46,700 nt of DNA from an uncultured Campylobacter sp. (GTDB lineage Bacteria; Campylobacterota; Campylobacteria; Campylobacterales; Campylobacteraceae), in NCBI GenBank assembly GCA_963519525.1, contig CAUQOI010000001.1:1-46700 (forward strand), written 5' to 3'. Within the stretch, counting starts at the first letter, position 1. Each line of letters opens with the position of its first letter. Below the pieces are notes generated by a model that saw nothing but the letters and a program-made list of their open reading frames with translations, was not told the origin of the DNA and did not search any database. The translations under genes and the position numbers were made by a program. Below are positions 1 to 11,932 of this stretch, in pieces.

Positions 1-2078
1 CACTTCACGCACTCGTGAAACGTCCCCTTTTTGAGCTCTTTTTTGATCATATCGCCGCCGCATTCGTCACATTTTTCGGCGACCGGCTCGTAGTTTGAGA
101 CAAAGTCGCATTTTGGGTAGTTTGCGCAGCCGTAAAATTTGCCCCTGCGGCTGATGCGCTCGACGATATCGCCGCCGCATTTTGGACACGGTACGTCGAT
201 CTTTTTGAGCTCTTTTTTCGGCTTTGTCGCCATTTCGCCTTCCTGCGCGCCTTGATCAGTCTTGGCGATATTGCGCGAGTATTTGCACTTAGGGAAATTT
301 CCGCACGCGATAAACTCGCCGTAGCGTCCCTTTCGTAGCAGTAGTTCGCCGCCGCACTCTGGGCACTTTTCGCCGATCGGAGTGGCGACTTTTTGGCTTT
401 TTATGCCTGTTTTGCCGGCTGAGATTTTATCCATAAACGGATGATAAAAATCGCTCAAAAGCTTTTGCCAGTCGGCTTTGTCTTCTGCGATGTGGTCGAG
501 CTTTTCTTCCATATTTGAGGTAAATTCGCTATCTACGATATCGCTAAAATGCTCCTCCAAAACGCCCATCATCGTAAAGGCGATCTCGTTTGGCACGAGC
601 TGCTTTTTCTCGACTTTGACGTAGTCGCGAGAGGTTAGCAACGAGATGGTCGGCGCGTAGGTGCTAGGGCGCCCGATGCCTAGGCTTTCTAGCTTTTTAA
701 CGAGCCCTGCCTCCGAGTAGCGAGATGGCGGTTCGGTGAAGTGCTGCGAGCTTTTGATGCTTTGCAGGCTCATTTCGTCGCCGATTTTTAAGTCGGGCAA
801 AATTTTATCCTTATCCATATCGCCGTAAACGCGGTAAAATCCGTCAAACAGCACCTTGCGGCCGCTTATTTTAAACTCGCCTTTTGCACCCGCGACGAAT
901 ACGTTTTGCGTCTGGCTAATGCTGGCGCTCATCTGGCAGGCTAAAAAGCGGTTGTAGATGAGCGTGTAGAGGCGCAATGCGTCTTTTTCGAGGTACTGCG
1001 CGGCGATAGCGGGCGTGAAGCTAAGATTCGTCGGACGGATCGCCTCGTGGGCTTCTTGCGCGCCTTTGCTCTTGGTAGCGTAAATTTTAGCCTTAGCGGG
1101 CAGGTAGCGTTCGCCGTACTCTTTCTTGATCGTCTCGCGCGCGGCAGCGACAGTTTCTTTGGCGAGATTTAGGCTGTCCGTTCTCATATACGTTATCGCG
1201 CCCATGAAGCCCTGGTGCGTCTGCACGCCCTCATATAAATTTTGGGCGATCATCATCGTTTTTTTTGGGCTAAAGCCTAGGCGGTTGCTCGCGCTTTGTT
1301 GTAGCGTCGAGGTCATAAAAGGCGGCGCGGGCTCGGTTTTACGCTCTTTGGCTTCGATCTCGCGGATGCTAAATTTATCGCTTTTTAGATTTTCTACGAT
1401 AAATTTGGCTCGGTCGCCGTTTGTTATAGTTAGCTTTTCTATCTTTTGCGCTTCAAATTTAACCAGCTCGGCGTCGAGGTCTTTTTTGAAAACCGCGTCG
1501 ATACTGTGGTATTCGATCGGTTTAAAGTCGCGAATCTCGCGCTCGCGGTCTACGATGATTTTTAGAGCGGCGCTTTGCACGCGTCCCGCGCTTAGGCCTT
1601 TTTGGATTTTTAAATTTAACAGCGGCGAGAGCTTGTAGCCAACGATTCGGTCCAGCAGGCGACGCGCTTGCTGTGCGTTTACGCTATCCATATTTATCGT
1701 GCGCGGGTTTTTTAAAGCGGCCTCGATGGCGCTTTTGGTGATCTCGTGAAACACGATGCGAGGCAGGCTCTCGGGCTTTTTGCCGATGGCTGCGGCGATG
1801 TGGTAGGCGATGGCCTCTCCCTCGCGGTCCTCATCGGTCGCGAGGTAGATTTGGTCGGCGTTTTTGGCTAGTTCTTTGATCTCTTTTACGATCGCGGAGT
1901 GATCGGCGCTTATTTTATACTCGGGAGTAAATTTTTCGCCCTCGATCTTGATGCCGAATGCCGTCTTTGGCAGATCCCTGATATGGCCTTTTGATGCGAT
2001 GACGTCGTAGTCTTTACCTAGAAAGTTTTTTATCGTTTTGGCTTTCGCGGGAGATTCCACGATGATTAAGCTTTTCAT
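1..2078 (-). CDS. topA: DNA topoisomerase I (3' end runs off the window)
   Basis: Reverse strand from ATG at 2078 reads MKSLIIVESPAKAKTIKNFLGKDYDVIASKGHIRDLPK; TOPRIM motif ATDEDREGEAIA, ITYMRTDS active site, GIGRPSTYA and C-terminal C4 zinc fingers (CPECGG, CPKCGG, CDECGG). Confidence 0.97.
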   Translation of the reverse strand, partial: MKSLIIVESPAKAKTIKNFLGKDYDVIASKGHIRDLPKTAFGIKIEGEKFTPEYKISADHSAIVKEIKELAKNADQIYLATDEDREGEAIAYHIAAAIGKKPESLPRIVFHEITKSAIEAALKNPRTINMDSVNAQQARRLLDRIVGYKLSPLLNLKIQKGLSAGRVQSAALKIIVDREREIRDFKPIEYHSIDAVFKKDLDAELVKFEAQKIEKLTITNGDRAKFIVENLKSDKFSIREIEAKERKTEPAPPFMTSTLQQSASNRLGFSPKKTMMIAQNLYEGVQTHQGFMGAITYMRTDSLNLAKETVAAARETIKKEYGERYLPAKAKIYATKSKGAQEAHEAIRPTNLSFTPAIAAQYLEKDALRLYTLIYNRFLACQMSASISQTQNVFVAGAKGEFKISGRKVLFDGFYRVYGDMDKDKILPDLKIGDEMSLQSIKSSQHFTEPPSRYSEAGLVKKLESLGIGRPSTYAPTISLLTSRDYVKVEKKQLVPNEIAFTMMGVLEEHFSDIVDSEFTSNMEEKLDHIAEDKADWQKLLSDFYHPFMDKISAGKTGIKSQKVATPIGEKCPECGGELLLRKGRYGEFIACGNFPKCKYSRNIAKTDQGAQEGEMATKPKKELKKIDVPCPKCGGDIVERISRRGKFYGCANYPKCDFVSNYEPVAEKCDECGGDMIKKELKKGTFHECVK

Positions 2079-2107
2079 TAATATAGCCTTTTTATTTTTT
2101 TGCGGTA

Positions 2108-2116
2108 ATTGTAGCA
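2108..2116 (-). promoter_or_regulatory. Putative sigma70 extended -10 (TGCTACAAT) for topA
   Basis: Matches the TGnTAnAAT extended -10 about 30 nt upstream of the topA start. Confidence 0.5.
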
Positions 2117-2162
2117 AAAATTTTGGCCGAAAAAGAAATTTGAAAATTTTTTCATTTACCCC

Positions 2163-2189
2163 TAAAGTTTTTTTGATTTCGTCCGATAT
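2163..2189 (+). promoter_or_regulatory. sigma28 (FliA) promoter of flagellin
   Basis: TAAA-N15-TCCGATAT, matching the sigma28 consensus TAAA-N15-GCCGATAA, about 50 nt upstream of the flagellin ATG. Confidence 0.85.
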
Positions 2190-2237
2190 AGTTTTCGTGC
2201 GACAAGAAGTCGTAACTAAACTTTAAAAGGATTTACA

Positions 2238-3734
2238 ATGAGTTTTCGTATTAACACTAACGTAAACGCACTCAACACACACGCAAACGCAGTCGGTAAC
2301 AACAGAATGTTATCTAACTCTCTTGGCAGATTAAGCTCGGGTTTGAGAATCCAAACAGCAGCGGACGACGCTTCTGGCCTATCGATCGCCGATAGCCTTC
2401 GCTCTCAAGCTTCTGCTCTTGGTCAAGCTATCGCTAACGGTAACGATGCTATCGGTATCATCCAAGTAGCGGATAAGGCTATGGACGAGCAGCTAAAAAT
2501 TCTTGATACTATCAAGGTAAAAGCTACTCAATCTGCTCAAGACGGTCAAACTACCCAGTCTCGTCAAGCGCTTCAGGCAGACATCGTTCGCCTAATGGAA
2601 GAGCTAGACAACATCGGCAATACGACGTCTTTCAACGGTCAGCAGCTACTAAACGGAACATTCTCTAACAAAGAGTTCCAAATCGGCGCTTATTCAAACC
2701 AAACAGTTAAGGCTTCTATCGGCGCTACAACGTCAGATAAGATCGGTCTAACAAGATTTGAGAGCTCAAAACTTTTAACTGGATTTGCTAAAGTTGATCT
2801 TAAGTTCTTAAATGTTGACGGAGTAAACGATGTTAAAGTAGCGCAAGCGACTGTTTCATCTGGTCTTGGTAACGGACTAGGAGCTTTGGCAGAAAATATC
2901 AACAAGGTTTCAGATAAGACCGGCGTTAGGGCTACGTTTGATGTTACTTGGGTAGCATCTAAAGCAATAAGCGGCGGTCTAGTTAAATCTCTTACTATCA
3001 ACGGCGTTAAGATAGGCGACCTTGAAGTAAAAGCAAATGATTCAAACGGTGCTTTGGTAAACGCTATCAATGCCGTGAAAGATCAAACTGGAGTTGAAGC
3101 GTCAGTAAATACCGAAGGTAAAATGGTTTTAACAAGCAGACAAGGTCGTGCTATTGAGATCAAAGGTAAAGATATTAGTGCTGGTCTTGGCGGAAAAGGT
3201 GTTAAGGCGAACGGTTCTTCTTTAACTGCTGGCTTCGTTGGTAGATTAAATTTGGTTCGTCTAGACGGACGCGATATTAAGATGAGCGGTGCACTACTTT
3301 CTAAGGCATTTAGTGATAAAGGCGGTGCGCAACAATCTGTATCATTGAGAGATGTAAGAGGTCAAATAGATAAAAACTTGGCTACCGCTATGGGCTTCCA
3401 AAGAATGAGTAAAAATATAAGCTCTAACCAATCAGCAGGCGTTATGACTCTACGTGGCGCGATGGCTGTTATGGATATCGCTGAGTCAGCTCAAAAAACT
3501 CTTGATCAGATCCGCTCAGACCTAGGTTCTGTTCAAAATCAGCTTGTTGCAACTGTAAACAATATCACGGTTACTCAAGTAAACGTAAAATCAGCTGAAT
3601 CTCAAATCAGAGACGTTGATTTCGCTGCCGAGTCAGCAAACTTCTCTAAGTTTAACATCCTTGCTCAATCAGGAAGTTATGCTATGAGCCAAGCTAACTC
3701 CGTTCAGCAAAATGTCTTGAGACTACTACAGTAG
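2238..3734 (+). CDS. flaA: Flagellin (major, FlaA-type by its sigma28 promoter)
   Basis: [12 protein letters not shown]...RLSSGLRI N-terminus and [11 protein letters not shown]...NVLRLLQ C-terminus; AAGGA RBS. Confidence 0.95.
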
Positions 3735-3923
3735 TCGAAAGCATTTCTACGCGAAGCGGGATTTATCCCGCGTAGCTGGAAAAACGTCCTAAGACTACTT
3801 CAGTAGTATTAAACGTTTCTAGTGAAGTAAGGCTATTTTAGGCCTTGCTGAACTACATAAATATCTTGAGATTACTACAGTAGTCGAAAGTATTTCTATG
3901 CGAGGTAGATCTATCTCGCATAG
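3710..3923 (+). repeat. Three-unit tandem array (72 and 77 bp spacing) of flagellin 3'-end hairpin plus variable hairpin
   Basis: AAATGTCTTGAGACTACTACAGTAGTCGAAAGCATTTCTA (3710), AAACGTCCTAAGACTACTTCAGTAGTATTAAACGTTTCTA (3782), AAATATCTTGAGATTACTACAGTAGTCGAAAGTATTTCTA (3859). Confidence 0.9.
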
Positions 3924-3959
3924 TTGTTTTTGGTGAGTGCATTTATAATACGTAAACTA

Positions 3960-3991
3960 AAGTCCTAGATTCGTTTGTTAATCTAGGACTT
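3960..3991. terminator. Inverted repeat, probable terminator between convergent flaA and maf
   Basis: AAGTCCTAGATT-N8-AATCTAGGACTT, a perfect 12-bp stem. Confidence 0.6.
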
Positions 3992-4255
3992 ATTCTGCTT
4001 TTATTATATTCATTTGATTATTTCAAAAAACAACTTGACTGACTTGGTATTTTAAGCGTTTCAAAGAGATAGCCAAAATTGACTACAAAATTTCCTTGCC
4101 TTTCTGGAAATATAATAAAACAAATAAGGACGACACACAGACCGCCGCGCTTCAAAAATCTAAATTTGTACCTGTTTTATATAAAACTCTAGTTTGCTAA
4201 GGAAAGTCGCTGCTAAAAAATATTAATCACAAAGGTTTTAGCCTTTTTTAAAAGC

Positions 4256-6307
4256 CTAAAAAGACAATTTAAAATCTTCTTTAGCTTCCCCTATCTCATT
4301 TTTAGTTATGAGATTTCGTTTTTTTAATTCCCTAACCAAATTTTTAGATGCTTTTTTTGTAACTTCTATTTCGGCATTTAGTCCGCCTGCAGCTGAAAAT
4401 AGCCAGTATTTATGCATTTCTATCCACTCGATCAATTTATTTACTTTTTGCATTACCGTATCGCTTGGAGCTACAGAAATTTTAGCAAGTTCTAGTTCTT
4501 GGTGATAAATAGATATGGACACGATATTTTCAATGAAAGGTTTAAATTTGGCTCTGGAGATAGTTTCTTTTGCTTTATCTATCTTGTTAGAAATTTCAAC
4601 TAATTGTGGGAAAAGTTCCTTGGTTATTTTATTTTCGTCTCTTAGCTTTATAATCTCGTCTATTTTAGGCACGATATCTAAGAATACTGTTTCTATTATT
4701 CGCTTAGCCTCGCTCTCGATACTGAGCTTTTTTACTATAAATTTATATGCTTTTAGTAGATTTTTATCGACATCCTCGTCTTTTGTGGGTTTAATATGCG
4801 GCAGTTTTTTTGGTTTTTTATTTTTGCAAAGCTTTTTTAAAGTTTCTAAAAACGGCTTTTCTATGCTGCCTTCTATTCTTGCGCCGCCCTCGGTGCAGTT
4901 GTATGTCGTTATGTCCTTTTTATTTGATTGTTCGATGTCGGCTTCAAATTGATTTCTAAATTTATCCCAAATATATGTTGTTCGCACTTCGCCCTCACCG
5001 CCGTAAGCTTTTATATAGAGGTATTCGTCTGCTTGAGCAAATGCGTGTCCTGTTGCGTGAGACTTGCCGTCTGGGGCAAAGGCTAGGTCTTGTCCGATCA
5101 AAATGATGTTTTTATGCCCTAATACGTAGGCTAGTTGGTAGGCTTGATTTGCTGTAGAATGTCCAAGCCCTAAGTAGCCGTATTTTCTTAACTTAAACGC
5201 CGTTTCGTTTTGCTGAGGTCTCATAGTGAGAGCTAGACGGCGCGGTAGGATATTTTTTATCGTTTGTTTGTGAGTCAATGAAGCGACTATAAAATAAATA
5301 TCTTCGTCAAATTTTTTATTTTTATGCTTAAAAAAGCTAGACGTCGCCTCTACTCGCTCAATCGAAGTTACATAGTCTGGCTTAATTCCGTGTTTGAATA
5401 GTATCGGATAAGAGGCATCAAGACTGATAACGGTAACATAATGAGCAAATTTTTTGAGCGTACTAAGCTGCTTATCTAGGCTAGGGCCTGTTGAGACTAT
5501 TACTGCCGTATCCATTGATTTATAGCGTTTTTTCACAAGATCTACATACGGATAGTTTTTTATCATCGTCGGCAAATTTTCTATATGCTGCCTAACGCCT
5601 ATTAGATTATCGTCGATGCTGTTGCCGTGACCTGCAACCATTTGAGATATGGCCTTTGTAAATTCTTGATTTATTTTCATGCAATCTTCGCTAAAATCGT
5701 CGTAAAAACGCGAGTGTATATGGAGGTCATAAATTTTAGCGTATGATGCGAATTTGTGATTGCAGATTAGATAGTAAAATTGCGTATATGTTGCAAATTC
5801 TGAGAAAAATAGCGTTAATCGCTCGCTCGCTAGTTCTTGCGACAAATCGACTAAATTTAGCGTTGCGTAAATGATTTCTATTTCAGGTTCGACGACGACG
5901 ATTTTTTGATGGGTTTCGTTTTTTAAGAGCGCTTTATAAAGTATTCCGTTGCCTAGCCCGTAAAAATACATAATGGGATAACGTTTATATTCTTTCTCGA
6001 TGGAGTCTAGCGCTTCTTGCGCATCTTTAACCGGATTATCATAGACGTATTTTAGGGTTTTGTTATTTATGATATTTATATCAATAGGATCTTTACCGAT
6101 AAAAATGTCATAATCCTTCATTTCTTCCATTCCCCAAAGACGAGCGGCTAAAATTTCGTCTTGCTGAAAGAGGGCGTTAAGGTTGCGTTGAAATACCGGA
6201 TTTTGTGGACCCTCGGCGTTTGTCATCTCTTGTTTTTTTGCATCTTGTTTAATGTTTTTTGTGCTTTGATGGTTTAAATTTAACTTTTTATCTATCTCTT
6301 TTGCCAT
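4256..6307 (-). CDS. maf: Motility-associated factor (Maf/DUF115) flagellin glycosyltransferase
   Basis: IVSTGPSLDKQL, GIKPDYV, IILIGQDLAF and YNCTEGGARIEG motifs; lies between pseI and flagellin. Confidence 0.9.
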   Translation of the reverse strand: MAKEIDKKLNLNHQSTKNIKQDAKKQEMTNAEGPQNPVFQRNLNALFQQDEILAARLWGMEEMKDYDIFIGKDPIDINIINNKTLKYVYDNPVKDAQEALDSIEKEYKRYPIMYFYGLGNGILYKALLKNETHQKIVVVEPEIEIIYATLNLVDLSQELASERLTLFFSEFATYTQFYYLICNHKFASYAKIYDLHIHSRFYDDFSEDCMKINQEFTKAISQMVAGHGNSIDDNLIGVRQHIENLPTMIKNYPYVDLVKKRYKSMDTAVIVSTGPSLDKQLSTLKKFAHYVTVISLDASYPILFKHGIKPDYVTSIERVEATSSFFKHKNKKFDEDIYFIVASLTHKQTIKNILPRRLALTMRPQQNETAFKLRKYGYLGLGHSTANQAYQLAYVLGHKNIILIGQDLAFAPDGKSHATGHAFAQADEYLYIKAYGGEGEVRTTYIWDKFRNQFEADIEQSNKKDITTYNCTEGGARIEGSIEKPFLETLKKLCKNKKPKKLPHIKPTKDEDVDKNLLKAYKFIVKKLSIESEAKRIIETVFLDIVPKIDEIIKLRDENKITKELFPQLVEISNKIDKAKETISRAKFKPFIENIVSISIYHQELELAKISVAPSDTVMQKVNKLIEWIEMHKYWLFSAAGGLNAEIEVTKKASKNLVRELKKRNLITKNEIGEAKEDFKLSF

Positions 6308-6319
6308 TTTCTTTCCTTT

Positions 6320-7348
6320 TTATAGATCTTCTTTTTTGATTCTTTCGCTAAATTTTATCTCTCTTTTTGCTTTTTTACCTAGTAATTCGGGTAAAAATTT
6401 AGGGTGCAAGCCGTATCCGGGGCGTACGCTTTTTACGTTTTTTTCGCTAAAAATTTCGCCCTCTTTGATATCCGTGCAAGCGTAAAGCGAGCGGGAAAAG
6501 CGGCGATTTTGCACGGCTTTTTCGTCTAGTTCGTAGTTTACTTTGCCAAGCAGAGCTTCGGCGTCTCGCACGGCTTTTACCATTTGGCTAAATTCCCGCT
6601 CGTCCAAGCTAAAAGCCTCATCGACGCTGCGAACGCTTTTATCTAAGATAAAGTGTTTTTCTACGATACGAGCGCCCAGACTCACGGCCACTACTGGCGC
6701 CACGATACCCAGGGTATGGTCTGAAAAGCCGACCTCTACGTCAAATTTTCGTTTCATATCGGCGATCGTACGTAGATTCATCCCGTCAAGCGGGGCGGGG
6801 TAGCTAGACGTGCATTTTAAAAGCGCGATCTGTTCGTTTCCCGCATCTTTGCAAATTTGCACGACGCCCTGGATCTCTTGCTCGGTCGCGATGCCCGTGG
6901 AGATTATGATCGGTTTGCCCTTGAGCGCGACGTACCGCACGAAATCATAGTCTGTGACCTCAAAACTTGCTATCTTGTAAGCAGGCGGGTTAAATTTCTC
7001 TAAAAAGTCCGCGTCGTCTCTGCAAAATGGGCTTGAAAAGCAGATGAGTCCTTCGTCCTTTGCCGCGGCAAAAAGCTGCTCATGCCACTCGCGCGGCGTC
7101 AGAGCTTGTTTGTAGAGCTCATATAAATTCGCTCCGTCCCACAGTCCGCCTTTTATCATGAAATCCTCGCTACGCGAATCTAACGTGAGGCTATCTGGCG
7201 TGTATGTTTGCAGTTTTATGGCGTCGGCTCCCGCGCGCTTAGCTGCTTTTATCGTGTCAAGCGCCGTTTGCAGGCTGCCCGAGTGATTTGCCGAGAGCTC
7301 GGCGATGATAAAGACCTTTTCGTTTGTGTCGAAATTTGCTATTTTCAT
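6320..7348 (-). CDS. pseI: Pseudaminic acid synthase
   Basis: IIAELSANHSG, KIASFE, GFSDHTLG, IVEKHF, C-terminal SAF domain; pse operon context. Confidence 0.95.
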   Translation of the reverse strand: MKIANFDTNEKVFIIAELSANHSGSLQTALDTIKAAKRAGADAIKLQTYTPDSLTLDSRSEDFMIKGGLWDGANLYELYKQALTPREWHEQLFAAAKDEGLICFSSPFCRDDADFLEKFNPPAYKIASFEVTDYDFVRYVALKGKPIIISTGIATEQEIQGVVQICKDAGNEQIALLKCTSSYPAPLDGMNLRTIADMKRKFDVEVGFSDHTLGIVAPVVAVSLGARIVEKHFILDKSVRSVDEAFSLDEREFSQMVKAVRDAEALLGKVNYELDEKAVQNRRFSRSLYACTDIKEGEIFSEKNVKSVRPGYGLHPKFLPELLGKKAKREIKFSERIKKEDL

Positions 7349-7356
7349 AAATTTTC

Positions 7357-7833
7357 CTAACTTTTAGCCATTATATCAAGTTTGCGTAAAGATAGCGACA
7401 TATAGCTCATTTGCCAGTCGCGCCCGTAAATTTCAAAGCCGAATTTACGGTATAGCGCGATCGCTTTTTCATTTTCGTTGCAGGCGCACGATTTTAGCTC
7501 GCCGACTTTAAGCGTTTTGGCGGCGTATTCTACGATGGTTTGCATTAGGATTTTGCCTTTGCCTTTTAGCTGGGGATTTGCGTAAATGCCAAATTTGCAC
7601 GAGTCCGCCGCGATATTCACGAAATCGATCACGCCGATATAGTCGCTATCCTCTTTTACTAAAAAATATCTTTTTGTTTCGTCGTTTTTTAAATTTGAGA
7701 TAAAGTTTCTGTGCTCTTGCTCGCTCACGCTTTTGTTTTTCATGTATTTTGCGACTCGCTCGTCGTTTCGCCAACGCAAAATCATCAAAATTTGCTCGTC
7801 CGTTAGATCGGTGAAATTTATAAGTTCAAGCAT
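7357..7833 (-). CDS. pseH: UDP-4-amino-4,6-dideoxy-N-acetyl-beta-L-altrosamine N-acetyltransferase (GNAT)
   Basis: MLELINFTDL...LRWRNDERV...NEKAIALYRKFGF; start taken at ATG 7833, overlapping the pseG end. Confidence 0.9.
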   Translation of the reverse strand: MLELINFTDLTDEQILMILRWRNDERVAKYMKNKSVSEQEHRNFISNLKNDETKRYFLVKEDSDYIGVIDFVNIAADSCKFGIYANPQLKGKGKILMQTIVEYAAKTLKVGELKSCACNENEKAIALYRKFGFEIYGRDWQMSYMSLSLRKLDIMAKS

Positions 7834-8678
7834 ATTTCGTCCGCCTCGTAGATCTCGCGCCCGTTTGCCGCTAGCCACTGCGCCGTCTCGTTTTGATTAT
7901 CCGATACGCGCACGGCTTTAAATCTCGCGCCCAAAACCAGCGCTTCGTTTACGAGCGAGCTAGCCGAAATCACTAAAATTTCGCTCTCGTTCATCAGTCG
8001 CGCAACCTCGTTTGAATTTATAAAAAGGCTAAAATTCGGCTCGCTATCCGCCAAATTTTGCAAATTTGCTAAATTTGCGTTCGCGCTCGTCGTGATAGCG
8101 GCTACTTTTTTGTTTTTGGCGAGCAAATTTGAGGCGATTTGTGCGGTCAAATTTAGCGCGTCAGTGCCGCCTAGCGCGATGAGGTAATTAAATTTTTTCT
8201 CGCGTTTGATTTTTGCTTCGCCATAAAACTCGCTCCTAACTAGCGGCGAAAAAACCAGCTCACAGTTTGCCGGCACTAGATTTACGTATTTTTGGGGCTG
8301 GGCGTAGATATTTACGTTTAACAAGTAGTCGCAAAAATGCTCTTTGTAGTTGTCGTCAAAGCTTAAAATTTTGATGTTCGTTTGCTCTTTGATTAGCTTT
8401 TCGTCCGCTGCGCTAATGCCGTAATGATCGATTATAAGAAGCTCAAATTTATGCTCTTTTATCAAATTTACCAGTTCGTTTACATCCGCACTTTTTAGCG
8501 TAAAAACGGGGTATGGTATCTCGCCTGCTAGGCTGCCGGGCAGGTCGATACAAGCAAAGCTAACGTCTTTAAAATTTTGCGCCAAGATGAGGTCGCGCCT
8601 AACGTGACCGTGCCCGATTTTTGAGCCGCTATCGGCGCGGATGAGGGTTTTTAGATTTGAGATTTTGTTAAAATTCAT
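7818..8678 (-). CDS. pseG: UDP-2,4-diacetamido-2,4,6-trideoxy-beta-L-altropyranose hydrolase
   Basis: LIRADSGSKIGHGHVRR, IIDHY, ALGGTD motifs. Confidence 0.92.
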   Translation of the reverse strand: MNFNKISNLKTLIRADSGSKIGHGHVRRDLILAQNFKDVSFACIDLPGSLAGEIPYPVFTLKSADVNELVNLIKEHKFELLIIDHYGISAADEKLIKEQTNIKILSFDDNYKEHFCDYLLNVNIYAQPQKYVNLVPANCELVFSPLVRSEFYGEAKIKREKKFNYLIALGGTDALNLTAQIASNLLAKNKKVAAITTSANANLANLQNLADSEPNFSLFINSNEVARLMNESEILVISASSLVNEALVLGARFKAVRVSDNQNETAQWLAANGREIYEADEICLNL

Positions 8679-8892
8679 CGAGTTTTTCCGCCAAATTTAA
8701 AATCCTAAGCGTCAAACAGACGGCGGCGATGAGGTAAACGGCGCCCGCCGAGGCGAAAAACAGAATCTGAACCTCGTTTAAGCCGCGGTAGCTAGCCGCC
8801 AGATAAAATATGTGCAAGATCCCCGCAACCGCAAAGATCTGCATGAGCGTTCTAGCTACCGATATTTTGGCTTTTAGGTAATCTTTTTGCAT
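8668..8892 (-). CDS. Small two-TM hypothetical membrane protein inside the pse operon
   Basis: 74 aa with two hydrophobic stretches; AGGA RBS; fills the pseF-pseG gap and overlaps the pseG start. Confidence 0.7.
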   Translation of the reverse strand: MQKDYLKAKISVARTLMQIFAVAGILHIFYLAASYRGLNEVQILFFASAGAVYLIAAVCLTLRILNLAEKLDEF

Positions 8893-8898
8893 TTTTCC

Positions 8899-9591
8899 TC
8901 AGTGATAATTTATCCGGTAAAGCTTCTGCGCAAACTCGAAATCCTCGGGCGTGTCGATGTCGCAGACCAAATTTCGCGGTAGCAAAAACGCCCTTGAGTG
9001 CGGCGCAAAGATCGGTTTTTTCTCCAGCCACGCCTCGCGCCTGCCGAAATAAAACGCGCCTGCGTCGTGATAAGCTCGCTCTAGATCTTGCGAGCGAGTT
9101 AGCGCAAACTGCGGGTAAAACATACTTGCGGCGCCATCCTTGCTAAGCCTAATCGCACGCTGGATAGGGAAGCTAAACTCCGTCGCGGAAAATAAAAACT
9201 CGCACTCTGTTTCCTCAAATTGGCCGTATGCCTCGCGTAAAATTTCTCCCGTGATAAGCGGCGCAGTCGCGTATAGGCAGCAAACGCGGGGGTATCCGCC
9301 CAGCCTCGCCGCCGTGTCCGCTACGGCGTCGCTGCTCGTGGCGTAGTCGTCGCTTAGCGCGGCGTCTCTCATAAACGGAACCTGCGCGCCAAATTTAACT
9401 GCGACGTCTGCTATCAGGGCGTCGTCGGTGCTCACTATGACGCGCTCGAAAACGCCAGAATTTAGCGCCGCCTCGATGCTGTAAGCTATCAGCGGCTTGC
9501 CTAAAAAATCTTTAACGTTTTTGCGCGGTATGCGCTTGCTGCCGCCGCGAGCCGGGATGACGCAAAGGGCGTGGTTTTGGTTTTCTATCAT
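8899..9591 (-). CDS. pseF: Pseudaminic acid cytidylyltransferase
   Basis: CVIPARGGSKRIPRKN, VSTDD, DIDTPEDF; start at ATG 9591 preferred. Confidence 0.93.
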   Translation of the reverse strand: MIENQNHALCVIPARGGSKRIPRKNVKDFLGKPLIAYSIEAALNSGVFERVIVSTDDALIADVAVKFGAQVPFMRDAALSDDYATSSDAVADTAARLGGYPRVCCLYATAPLITGEILREAYGQFEETECEFLFSATEFSFPIQRAIRLSKDGAASMFYPQFALTRSQDLERAYHDAGAFYFGRREAWLEKKPIFAPHSRAFLLPRNLVCDIDTPEDFEFAQKLYRINYH

Positions 9592-9604
9592 CAAATTTAC
9601 CGCC

Positions 9605-10735
9605 CTAAACCCTGCAGCCTTGCGGCGTATCAAAGCTCTTTAAAACCTCAAAAAGCGCGTCTGCGACGAAATTTGCGTCCTCTAGGCTCATACACTGATG
9701 GCACGGGATACTAAGCTCGGCGGCGTAAAAATCCTCGGCGCTAGGAACCGAAATATCGCCGTAGCGCTCGCGGTAAAAGCTAAATTTATAAGTCGGTTTG
9801 TAGTGCACTTGTACGCCGATGCCGCGCGCGTGAAGGGCGGCAAATATGTCCTCTTTGGCGCACCAAAACTGGCGAAATAGCAAGATAGGGTAGAGGTGGC
9901 GCGAACTAACGACGTCGCCGGGTAGCTTCACGGTGCTAAAATACGGACTTTTCTCAAATTTTTCGTCGTAAAATTTGGCGATTTTCTCGCGCGCCGCGAT
10001 GGTTTCGTCTAACCTTTTTAGCTGATTTAGTCCTAGCGCGCAGGCGACGTCGGGTAGGCGGTAGTTGTAGCCAAGCAAGCTCTGATCGCTGTCCCAGAGG
10101 CGTTTTTTGGCTATGCCGTGCGAGCGGTAGAGGCGTGCCAGGCGCGCGATCTCGTCATCGTTAGTCGCTAGCGCGCCGCCCTCAAAGGTCGTTAGCGGCT
10201 TAACGGGGTGAAAGCTAAAAATGCTAACGTCCGCTTTTGCGCCGACTTTGACGCCGCTTTGCGAGCTGCCCAGCGCGTGCGAAGCGTCGTCAAGCACCTT
10301 TATGCCGCGCTGCTTGGCTAGTTTTAAGATGGCGTCTAAATTTACTGGATTGCCGCCGAAATCAACCGCCGTTATGACTTTTGTTTTGGGCGTGATTAGG
10401 CTTGCTAGCGCGTTTTCGTCAATATTTCCGTTAAATTTGACGGGTGCAAATTTAACCTCGGCTCCCGCCATTAGCGCCGCGTTTGCCGTCGCCGCAAACG
10501 TGATGGGCGTCGTTATGACCTCGTCTCCCTCTCTCACGCCTAGTGCTAGATACGCGACGTGAAGTGCCGACGTCGCCGAGTTCATCGCTACGACGTGCTT
10601 TATGCCGACGTATTTTGCGATAGCCTGCTCAAATTCGCCGACCTTGTCGCCGCCGGTTAGGATATCGTCTTTTAGGGCGCTCACGACAGCGGCGATGTCG
10701 GAGTCGGTGATTTGTTGTCTGCTATAAGGTATCAT
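9605..10735 (-). CDS. pseC: UDP-4-amino-4,6-dideoxy-N-acetyl-beta-L-altrosamine transaminase
   Basis: MIPYSRQ, NSATSALH, SFHPVKPLTTFEGG (DegT family); AAGGA RBS before ATG 10735. Confidence 0.95.
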   Translation of the reverse strand: MIPYSRQQITDSDIAAVVSALKDDILTGGDKVGEFEQAIAKYVGIKHVVAMNSATSALHVAYLALGVREGDEVITTPITFAATANAALMAGAEVKFAPVKFNGNIDENALASLITPKTKVITAVDFGGNPVNLDAILKLAKQRGIKVLDDASHALGSSQSGVKVGAKADVSIFSFHPVKPLTTFEGGALATNDDEIARLARLYRSHGIAKKRLWDSDQSLLGYNYRLPDVACALGLNQLKRLDETIAAREKIAKFYDEKFEKSPYFSTVKLPGDVVSSRHLYPILLFRQFWCAKEDIFAALHARGIGVQVHYKPTYKFSFYRERYGDISVPSAEDFYAAELSIPCHQCMSLEDANFVADALFEVLKSFDTPQGCRV

Positions 10736-10749
10736 TTTTGTCCTTTTTT

Positions 10750-10883
10750 GGCTTGTCTTTTTGGCGGCTCGTCTTTTTCCGCTATACGTCGTTAAATTTA
10801 AAATTTTCTCGGTCACGTATTTTATATACGCTCCCTCGCAAATTTTAAATTTGCCTCGTCTAACAAAAAAATACTTTGCCTCG
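10750..10883 (-). repeat. Palindromic intergenic element, copy A (before the pseC RBS)
   Basis: On the minus strand: GTATTTTT...AAATTTAAAATTTGCGAGGGAGCGTATATAAAATACGTGACCGAGAAAATTTTAAATTT...AAAAAGACAAGCC; aligns with 11948-12058. Confidence 0.75.
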
Positions 10884-10933
10884 TTTTTCTAAATTTAAAG
10901 GCTTCGGCTCAAATTTTATAAATTTCGGCCAAA

Positions 10934-11932
<999 letters not shown>

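Follow-up and report, generated by a model that had tools for sequence, protein, structure and literature searches.

The stretch of DNA analysed here (the window, 46,700 nt at its full length) comes from an uncultured Campylobacter sp. (contig CAUQOI010000001.1 of assembly GCA_963519525.1) and carries on its plus strand, at positions 2238..3734, an open reading frame (ORF) encoding a flagellin of 498 aa with matches to the Pfam families Flagellin_N, Flagellin_IN and Flagellin_C. This is the sole full flagellin gene in its own draft genome. Immediately at its 3′ end, within window positions 3709-3932, lies a short array of hairpins in which the end of the gene itself is repeated, and it is this array that concerns us. 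A repeat search resolved it into one family of three 45-nt direct copies, located at 3710-3754, 3782-3826 and 3859-3903, which are spaced by 72 and 77 nt and show 100, 71 and 91% identity to copy 1, respectively. As a preliminary description of this DNA had stated, the flagellin gene end recurs twice downstream, with stop codons at 3734, 3806 and 3883. Translation showed that copies 1 and 2 encode the identical seven residues followed by the stop, and that one residue is changed in copy 3. The copies are too diverged for Tandem Repeats Finder, which did not call the array, and no ORF of at least 40 aa was found within 3735-4017.

Each of the three units is made up of a 41-nt hairpin holding the stop codon (H1), followed by a second hairpin richer in G+C (H2). 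The last eight codons of the flagellin gene constitute the 5′ arm of the first H1. H1 copy 1 (3709..3749, plus strand like all six hairpins) is the live copy and spans the real stop codon at 3732-3734, H1 copy 2 (3781..3821), which is in frame with copy 1, has its stop at 3804-3806, and H1 copy 3 (3858..3898) has its stop at 3881-3883, out of frame. When scored with R1, a covariance model built from 28 distinct H1 units, the three copies gave 68.5, 61.9 and 61.5 bits, respectively. Their predicted folding energies were -13.4, -8.6 and -8.9 kcal/mol, with z-scores of -3.8, -3.1 and -2.5 relative to shuffled sequences. The long hairpin with the stop in its 3′ arm that had been described for each repeat is thus borne out, and the alignment contains the compensatory differences that had been noted at the hairpin bases. 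The second hairpins, H2a (3746..3780), H2b (3818..3857) and H2c (3895..3932), fold at -16.0, -17.6 and -16.7 kcal/mol (z-scores of -3.0, -4.6 and -6.0). The sequences between the repeats had been described as self-complementary and different from one another. Folding agrees with the first point, but the spacers are not all unrelated, since H2a and H2c align with each other, and they also align with the second hairpins of relatives. Folded in its entirety, the region 3700-3935 forms six hairpins in series with an energy of -86.4 kcal/mol and a z-score of -7.9. The initial heptamer of H2a, at 3751-3757, is a motif which we take to be a known, unusually stable DNA mini-hairpin; it is not conserved in all relatives.

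Only two hairpins in this region combine the G+C-rich stem and the T-run that characterize an intrinsic terminator. One is H2c, for which a terminator scan identified a 12-pair stem at 3896-3923 followed by a T-run, and the other is located at 3960-3991. The three H1 hairpins, H2a and H2b are not followed by a proper T-run. H2c therefore looks like the first canonical intrinsic terminator after the flagellin gene, as predicted from the scan. The second terminator-like hairpin belongs to a conserved element at 3940..4001 (plus strand), in which a motif of ~20 nt with a -10-like core precedes the hairpin and a T-rich tail. This element recurs behind other flagellin genes (loci L012, L029, L042, L043 and L048 and many Campylobacter concisus loci), and its hairpin has other stem letters in the Campylobacter showae group than in C. 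concisus. The element may be either the outermost terminator of the flagellin transcript or a small RNA gene in its own right. The idea that an older, decayed copy of the gene end might lie at 3932-4000 was not supported by a gapped local search against shuffled sequences.

The units were found at flagellin gene ends and nowhere else among the matches examined. In the window's own genome, BLAST detected no further copy and R1 matched the three copies alone. Within the genus, a 17-letter pattern covering the junction of H1 and H2a was matched, exactly or with one mismatch, only on contigs with flagellin. Among 142 genomes of the genus, R1 matches occurred in 73, and every match listed corresponded to a flagellin 3′ end when compared by eye with the flagellin-end coordinates; the single match falling outside the list of such ends (in genome G002) proved on checking to be a further flagellin paralogue. 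In a sample of 151 genomes of the family, matches were obtained in 42, belonging to four of the 12 genera (14/34, 14/35, 12/19 and 1/1 genomes per genus). All 18 loci fetched from these genera had a flagellin match, and four separate R1 matches in one genome (G144) corresponded to four flagellin paralogues. A dispersed palindrome, in contrast, would be expected behind many unrelated genes. A search of Rfam with the region 2000-4400 returned seven matches at E-values up to 10, all far below the gathering score and none within 3700-3935.

A test independent of the window, in which the last 24 nt of each flagellin gene were sought within the following 400 nt with at most 6 mismatches, revealed extra gene-end copies at 27 of 100 distinct flagellin ends (24 with one and three with two; two of the 27 look doubtful by eye), compared to 0/100 in each of two controls. 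Chance is excluded by this difference. The array is neither a chance pattern nor a dispersed repeat nor a mobile element. With a gapped search, 31 of the 100 flagellin ends scored above the 99th percentile of shuffled sequences.

It had also been proposed that the units might be site-specific cassettes, similar to att or integron attC sites, serially inserted at the flagellin 3′ end; a recombinase would be responsible in that case. Indeed, the imperfect palindromes are repeated at a fixed boundary, with units beginning at one and the same codon across lineages, and as in attC and CRISPR (clustered regularly interspaced short palindromic repeats) arrays they alternate with different short intervening sequences. 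However, unlike integron cassettes, the repeats lie only 28-36 nt apart, and the hairpin spacers between them contain no ORF. Furthermore, Pfam searches identified no integrase, transposase, recombinase or cas family among the ORFs of at least 180 aa up to 26.6 kb of the window, no copy was found away from flagellin ends in the 142 genomes, and the fixed boundary is merely the foot of the hairpin. The cassette hypothesis is thus hardly tenable. CRISPR arrays, with their near-identical repeats and unrelated spacers, differ as well, as the repeats here are only 71-91% alike and are copies of the adjacent gene end, and the spacers are related hairpins rather than foreign sequences.

The closest flagellin loci were those of C. 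showae and of uncultured oral Campylobacter, with C. concisus and others being more distant; relatives were sampled as one genome per species. Unit number and order vary among them, as the preliminary description had anticipated. In 87 distinct regions downstream of flagellin genes, the H1 core was absent from 29, present once in 41 and twice in 16, and present three times only in the window. The offsets between units also differ, amounting to 50-51 nt in C. concisus, 54-55 nt in two other species and 45 nt in two more. In lineages with different unit sequences and lengths, the copy nevertheless always starts at the same codon, which corresponds to the foot of the hairpin. Arrays of as many as four directly adjacent units, lacking H2 and ending in a canonical terminator, are present in another genus. 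The window can be aligned with two complete genomes as far as 3749 and once more from 3781 onwards; on the side of those genomes the two alignments share 41 nt, so that they have one unit fewer than the window. In a genome encoding a 100% identical flagellin protein, only units 2 and 3 are present, and the live gene end is of the copy-2 type. More generally, both the copy-2 type and a simple terminal type occur as the live gene end in some genomes but as a downstream copy in others. As judged from reading the printed sequences rather than from a count, the order of units within the C. showae group, wherever more than one is found, is the copy-1 type, the copy-2 type, units consisting of a hairpin only, and finally the copy-3 or the simple terminal type. 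This constant order fits the loss or gain of contiguous units.

These arrangements raise the question of whether the order of three units in the window could be an assembly chimera, in which a strain carrying units 1 and 2 and a strain carrying units 2 and 3 were joined via the shared unit 2. The draft comprises 157 contigs with 2.3% contamination, and relatives with exactly the two arrangements exist. Moreover, short contigs of other samples, examined in four sequencing runs, are arranged differently here: one connects 3735 with 3929 by way of 51 different letters, and there are loose ends at 3736 and 3807 that continue into other sequence. On the other hand, neither relative has a unit 2 identical to that of the window, and arrays of three or four units are present in other genomes, some of them assembled in few contigs. 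A chimeric origin is in our view distinctly improbable, and owing to the arrays in other genomes the phenomenon itself is independent of this window.

The preliminary description had taken the preserved coding sense of the copies as an argument against simple duplication. This argument fails on two counts. Since the coding end of the gene itself makes up the hairpin's 5′ arm, any duplicate of the hairpin would carry it. In addition, two of the copy types found downstream are, in other genomes, the live end of the gene. Its related suggestion of allele swapping can be retained only in the form of unequal homologous recombination between gene ends, possibly following DNA uptake, and not as a site-specific process.

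Copy 2 being in frame with the gene, stop-codon read-through would yield a flagellin extended by 24 residues, with its final seven residues unchanged. A distance of 72 nt separates the first stop from the second, and the 23 intervening codons are open (window 3711-3806), and by reading, the first unit (45 nt) of two other species is likewise in frame and open. However, other unit types are out of frame (offsets of 50, 51, 55 and 149) or contain early stops, and so is copy 3 of the window out of frame; by a rough estimate, chance alone would leave about one in eight unit types both in frame and open. Given the other unit types, the in-frame open copy 2 is probably due to chance, and we consider an extended flagellin very improbable. 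At one locus in another genus (L164, genome G189), the tip of the stop-codon hairpin is deleted at the end of a second flagellin gene. On our reading of this sequence the usual stop would be lost and the frame would run into the next unit, and this second flagellin may be a pseudogene or have an altered C-terminus.

Covariation, which had been put forward as a check on the array, supports both hairpins. For H1, 83.3% of the 455 cells obtained from 17 pairs in 28 distinct units are paired, compared to 34-42% when the partner is slid. Changes on both sides of a pair were found in nine of the 17 pairs (27 cells), and none of 500 shuffles reached the observed value. The same pattern was seen for H2, with 82.6% of cells paired across 11 pairs and 11 units versus 31-46% upon sliding, and with two-sided changes in five of the 11 pairs (10 cells; 0/500 shuffles). 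At 43 distinct flagellin ends, windows around the stop codon had a median folding energy of -9.4 kcal/mol compared to -6.2 kcal/mol for coding windows of the same genes, and 58% of the former but only 12% of the latter had z-scores below -2. The stop codon was fully paired in 27 of the 43 ends. Other species have quite different stem letters, with stems of up to 16-17 perfect pairs, and in another genus some downstream units have lost both the stop and the hairpin tip while retaining the stem. Taken together, these data lead to the conclusion that the hairpin is maintained, acting as RNA or as DNA, as far as can be judged from sequence comparison. Two other candidate roles were considered. An operator for a sequence-specific DNA-binding protein was rejected, as it does not agree with stem letters that vary freely between species while pairing is kept. 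A CsrA-type sponge gains no backing from the two GGA triplets counted by eye in ~200 nt, which are no more than expected by chance.

We regard the array as a structured 3′ untranslated region (UTR) of the flagellin mRNA, consisting of three tandem diverged two-hairpin modules that change by recombination and protect the mRNA 3′ end; this reading is probable, if by no wide measure. Several observations weigh against it. RNAalifold by itself retains only the inner five pairs of H1, and the energy of this consensus, -3.4 kcal/mol, is weak. Among the 455 H1 cells there are 20 G-U and 24 A-C combinations, counted with one structure forced on two unit types. G-U combinations not exceeding A-C combinations, there is no sign that it is the sense RNA rather than a DNA palindrome that is kept. 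In addition, the sequences are related, and the shuffle controls therefore overstate the support. Template switching within a quasi-palindrome could yield perfect 16-17-bp units in the absence of selection, thereby mimicking covariation. Finally, as relatives carry units 1 and 2 or units 2 and 3, the three-unit order may be the chimeric join through unit 2 considered above, which leaves the general finding unaffected.

Several of these points also bear on an alternative in which the units are functionless, neutral relics of recombination at the flagellin locus, that is, of allele replacement after DNA uptake or of the loss of tandem paralogues. In this view, the hairpins would owe their persistence to the self-correction of DNA palindromes through template switching and to the young age of the copies. 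In agreement with this, besides the G-U count and the perfect palindromes, tip deletions typical of unstable palindromes were observed, unit types are common to several species and even genera, and flagellin loci are rearranged among close relatives, with three contexts and tandem genes. Neutrality does not readily explain, however, why a stop-spanning hairpin with different stem letters is found at single-copy flagellin ends in four genera, which argues for long-term maintenance, nor why H2 covaries even though it is no copy of a coding sequence, nor why downstream units without a stop still retain their stem. We therefore consider neutral relics an unlikely, though not a far-fetched, explanation.

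In the structured 3′ UTR that we favour, a module would consist of an H1, with the last eight codons in its 5′ arm and the stop in its 3′ arm or loop, and a shorter G+C-rich H2. The units are predicted to be part of the flagellin mRNA because they lie downstream of the stop codon but ahead of the first proper terminator. Transcription would most likely pass through all three units and end at H2c or at 3960-3991, given that a T-run is found only behind the last H2. The recurrence of the last eight codons would follow from the 5′ arm of H1 being coding, whereby each duplicated module carries a pseudo gene end. Unequal homologous recombination or slippage between the repeated gene ends of 24-40 nt would add or remove modules, and modules may be exchanged within the chromosome or after DNA uptake from relatives. 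The same recombination would shift units between live and downstream positions and thereby keep their codons sensible. The synonymous-only differences could be accounted for in this manner, because the downstream copies either are real gene ends or were so until recently, and because the 5′ arm must in addition stay complementary to the 3′ arm. The hairpins would be the conserved part, and they most likely both define and protect the 3′ terminus of this mRNA, which is very abundant. Protection may be achieved by blocking 3′ exonucleases and by providing extra termination that shields neighbouring genes from read-through. The gene shielded in the window would be a convergent maf-type gene, and in relatives with another gene order it would be topA, which lies downstream of flagellin there. 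Altogether, the modules probably shape the end of the flagellin mRNA.

The gene neighbourhood was examined by Pfam scans of 20 ORFs of at least 180 aa located between positions 3 and 26591. These encode topoisomerase I, flagellin, a Maf protein, NeuB, sugar-nucleotide enzymes, transporters and housekeeping enzymes. The topoisomerase I gene (topA) occupies positions 3-2117 on the minus strand. On the other side of the array, the Maf-type flagellin glycosylation protein (Pfam MptE-like and Maf_flag10_N) is encoded at 4256..6307 on the minus strand, convergent to flagellin. It is the first of a set of glycosylation genes at 4256-11932, likewise convergent to flagellin and comprising Maf, NeuB, a cytidylyltransferase, a DegT aminotransferase and a Polysacc_synt_2 dehydratase; those beyond the Maf gene are of the kind involved with pseudaminic or legionaminic acid.

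Gene order at this locus differs among close relatives. The region 1-3734 of the window was compared to the corresponding loci L041 (G082), L044 (G086), L018-L021 and L034-L040. In close relatives with a topA that is 93-98% identical, the flagellin gene is oriented towards topA, whereas in the window the two genes are divergent. A third flagellin context and tandem flagellin genes also occur. Given these differing contexts, the flagellin gene has been repeatedly relocated or inverted within this group. In G082, two ORFs of ~900 aa with DUF4214 domains lie upstream of flagellin, and a DNA search of the window's own genome with these ORFs gave no match.

Overall, the feature is real and, as described below, undescribed, but it is not exotic when set beside known systems. 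We found no published description of repeats or hairpins at Campylobacter flagellin 3′ ends, although older papers on flaA-flaB, which the literature search did not cover, may mention a terminator. The flagellin mRNA is known to be regulated at its 5′ end by CsrA and FliW (PMC4894983), and the passages on this regulation contain nothing on the 3′ end. A conserved, covarying hairpin over the stop codon that is confined to flagellin genes and reiterated one to four times in several genera points to a 3′-end layer that has not been studied. Candidate roles at this end are mRNA stability, termination beside the glycosylation or topA genes, and small RNAs. There is also a practical side, in that a hairpin overlapping the coding end produces 'fossil gene ends' upon duplication, which annotators could mistake for pseudogene fragments or cassette arrays.

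With respect to terminators, H2c (3896-3923 with its T-run) and the hairpin at 3960-3991 fit the consensus of intrinsic or tandem terminators, and the A-rich run before each H1 together with the T-rich run behind it resembles a bidirectional terminator. In contrast to intrinsic terminators, however, H1 and the first two H2 have no proper T-run, and the H1 units of the other genus precede a separate terminator. The H1 units would therefore be part of the transcript and not its end.

A closer parallel is provided by repetitive extragenic palindromes (REP sequences) and bacterial interspersed mosaic elements (BIMEs) of enterobacteria, which have a role as mRNA 3′ stabilisers. Like these, the units described here are tandem mosaics of imperfect palindromes placed right behind a gene, their number varies between strains, and they are plausible barriers to 3′ exonucleases. 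Unlike REP sequences, which are dispersed in hundreds of copies, they are present only at flagellin gene ends, and their H1 is made from the gene's own coding end and stop codon. The two phenomena meet in Escherichia coli, where, according to one publication (PMC10578931), a REP-type element in the flagellin 3′ UTR is part of FliX-S.

FliX of E. coli is one of two systems with which the array shares its setting, the other being FlaX of Vibrio cholerae, which is processed from the flaA 3′ UTR (PMC11879080). In both cases, as in the window, the 3′ UTR of a major flagellin gene is structured and belongs to a very abundant late flagellar transcript. The same sources state that FliX co-purifies with Hfq (PMC10578931) and FlaX with ProQ (PMC11879080). 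The units have no sequence similarity to FliX or FlaX and no Rfam match, and processing was demonstrated experimentally in those two systems whereas the present units are known from DNA only. It could nonetheless be envisaged that regulatory RNAs are likewise processed from the array, its units being excised from the flagellin 3′ UTR to act on flagellar or other mRNAs or on a protein, or that the array is a binding platform. That flagellin 3′ UTRs yield processed small RNAs in two other bacteria, as described in these accounts, is consistent with this, and so is the composition of the units as discrete, stable hairpin pairs of ~75 nt. Yet the stems vary freely between species, which fits a structural role better than that of a conserved pairing seed, and the copy number falls to one in many relatives. 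We thus consider it improbable that this is what the array does.

A broader proposal, rather unlikely as it stands, is that the units represent a flagellin-specific structured RNA element across the Campylobacteraceae, which would control the fate of flagellin mRNA or give rise, by cleavage, to small regulatory RNAs. Among late flagellar products, flagellin is the most abundant, and it is a main antigen and motility factor of Campylobacter. If the proposal were true, a copy number tuned by recombination would set flagellin output or the read-through into the glycosylation genes, and the array would be the counterpart of FliX and FlaX in organisms without Hfq.

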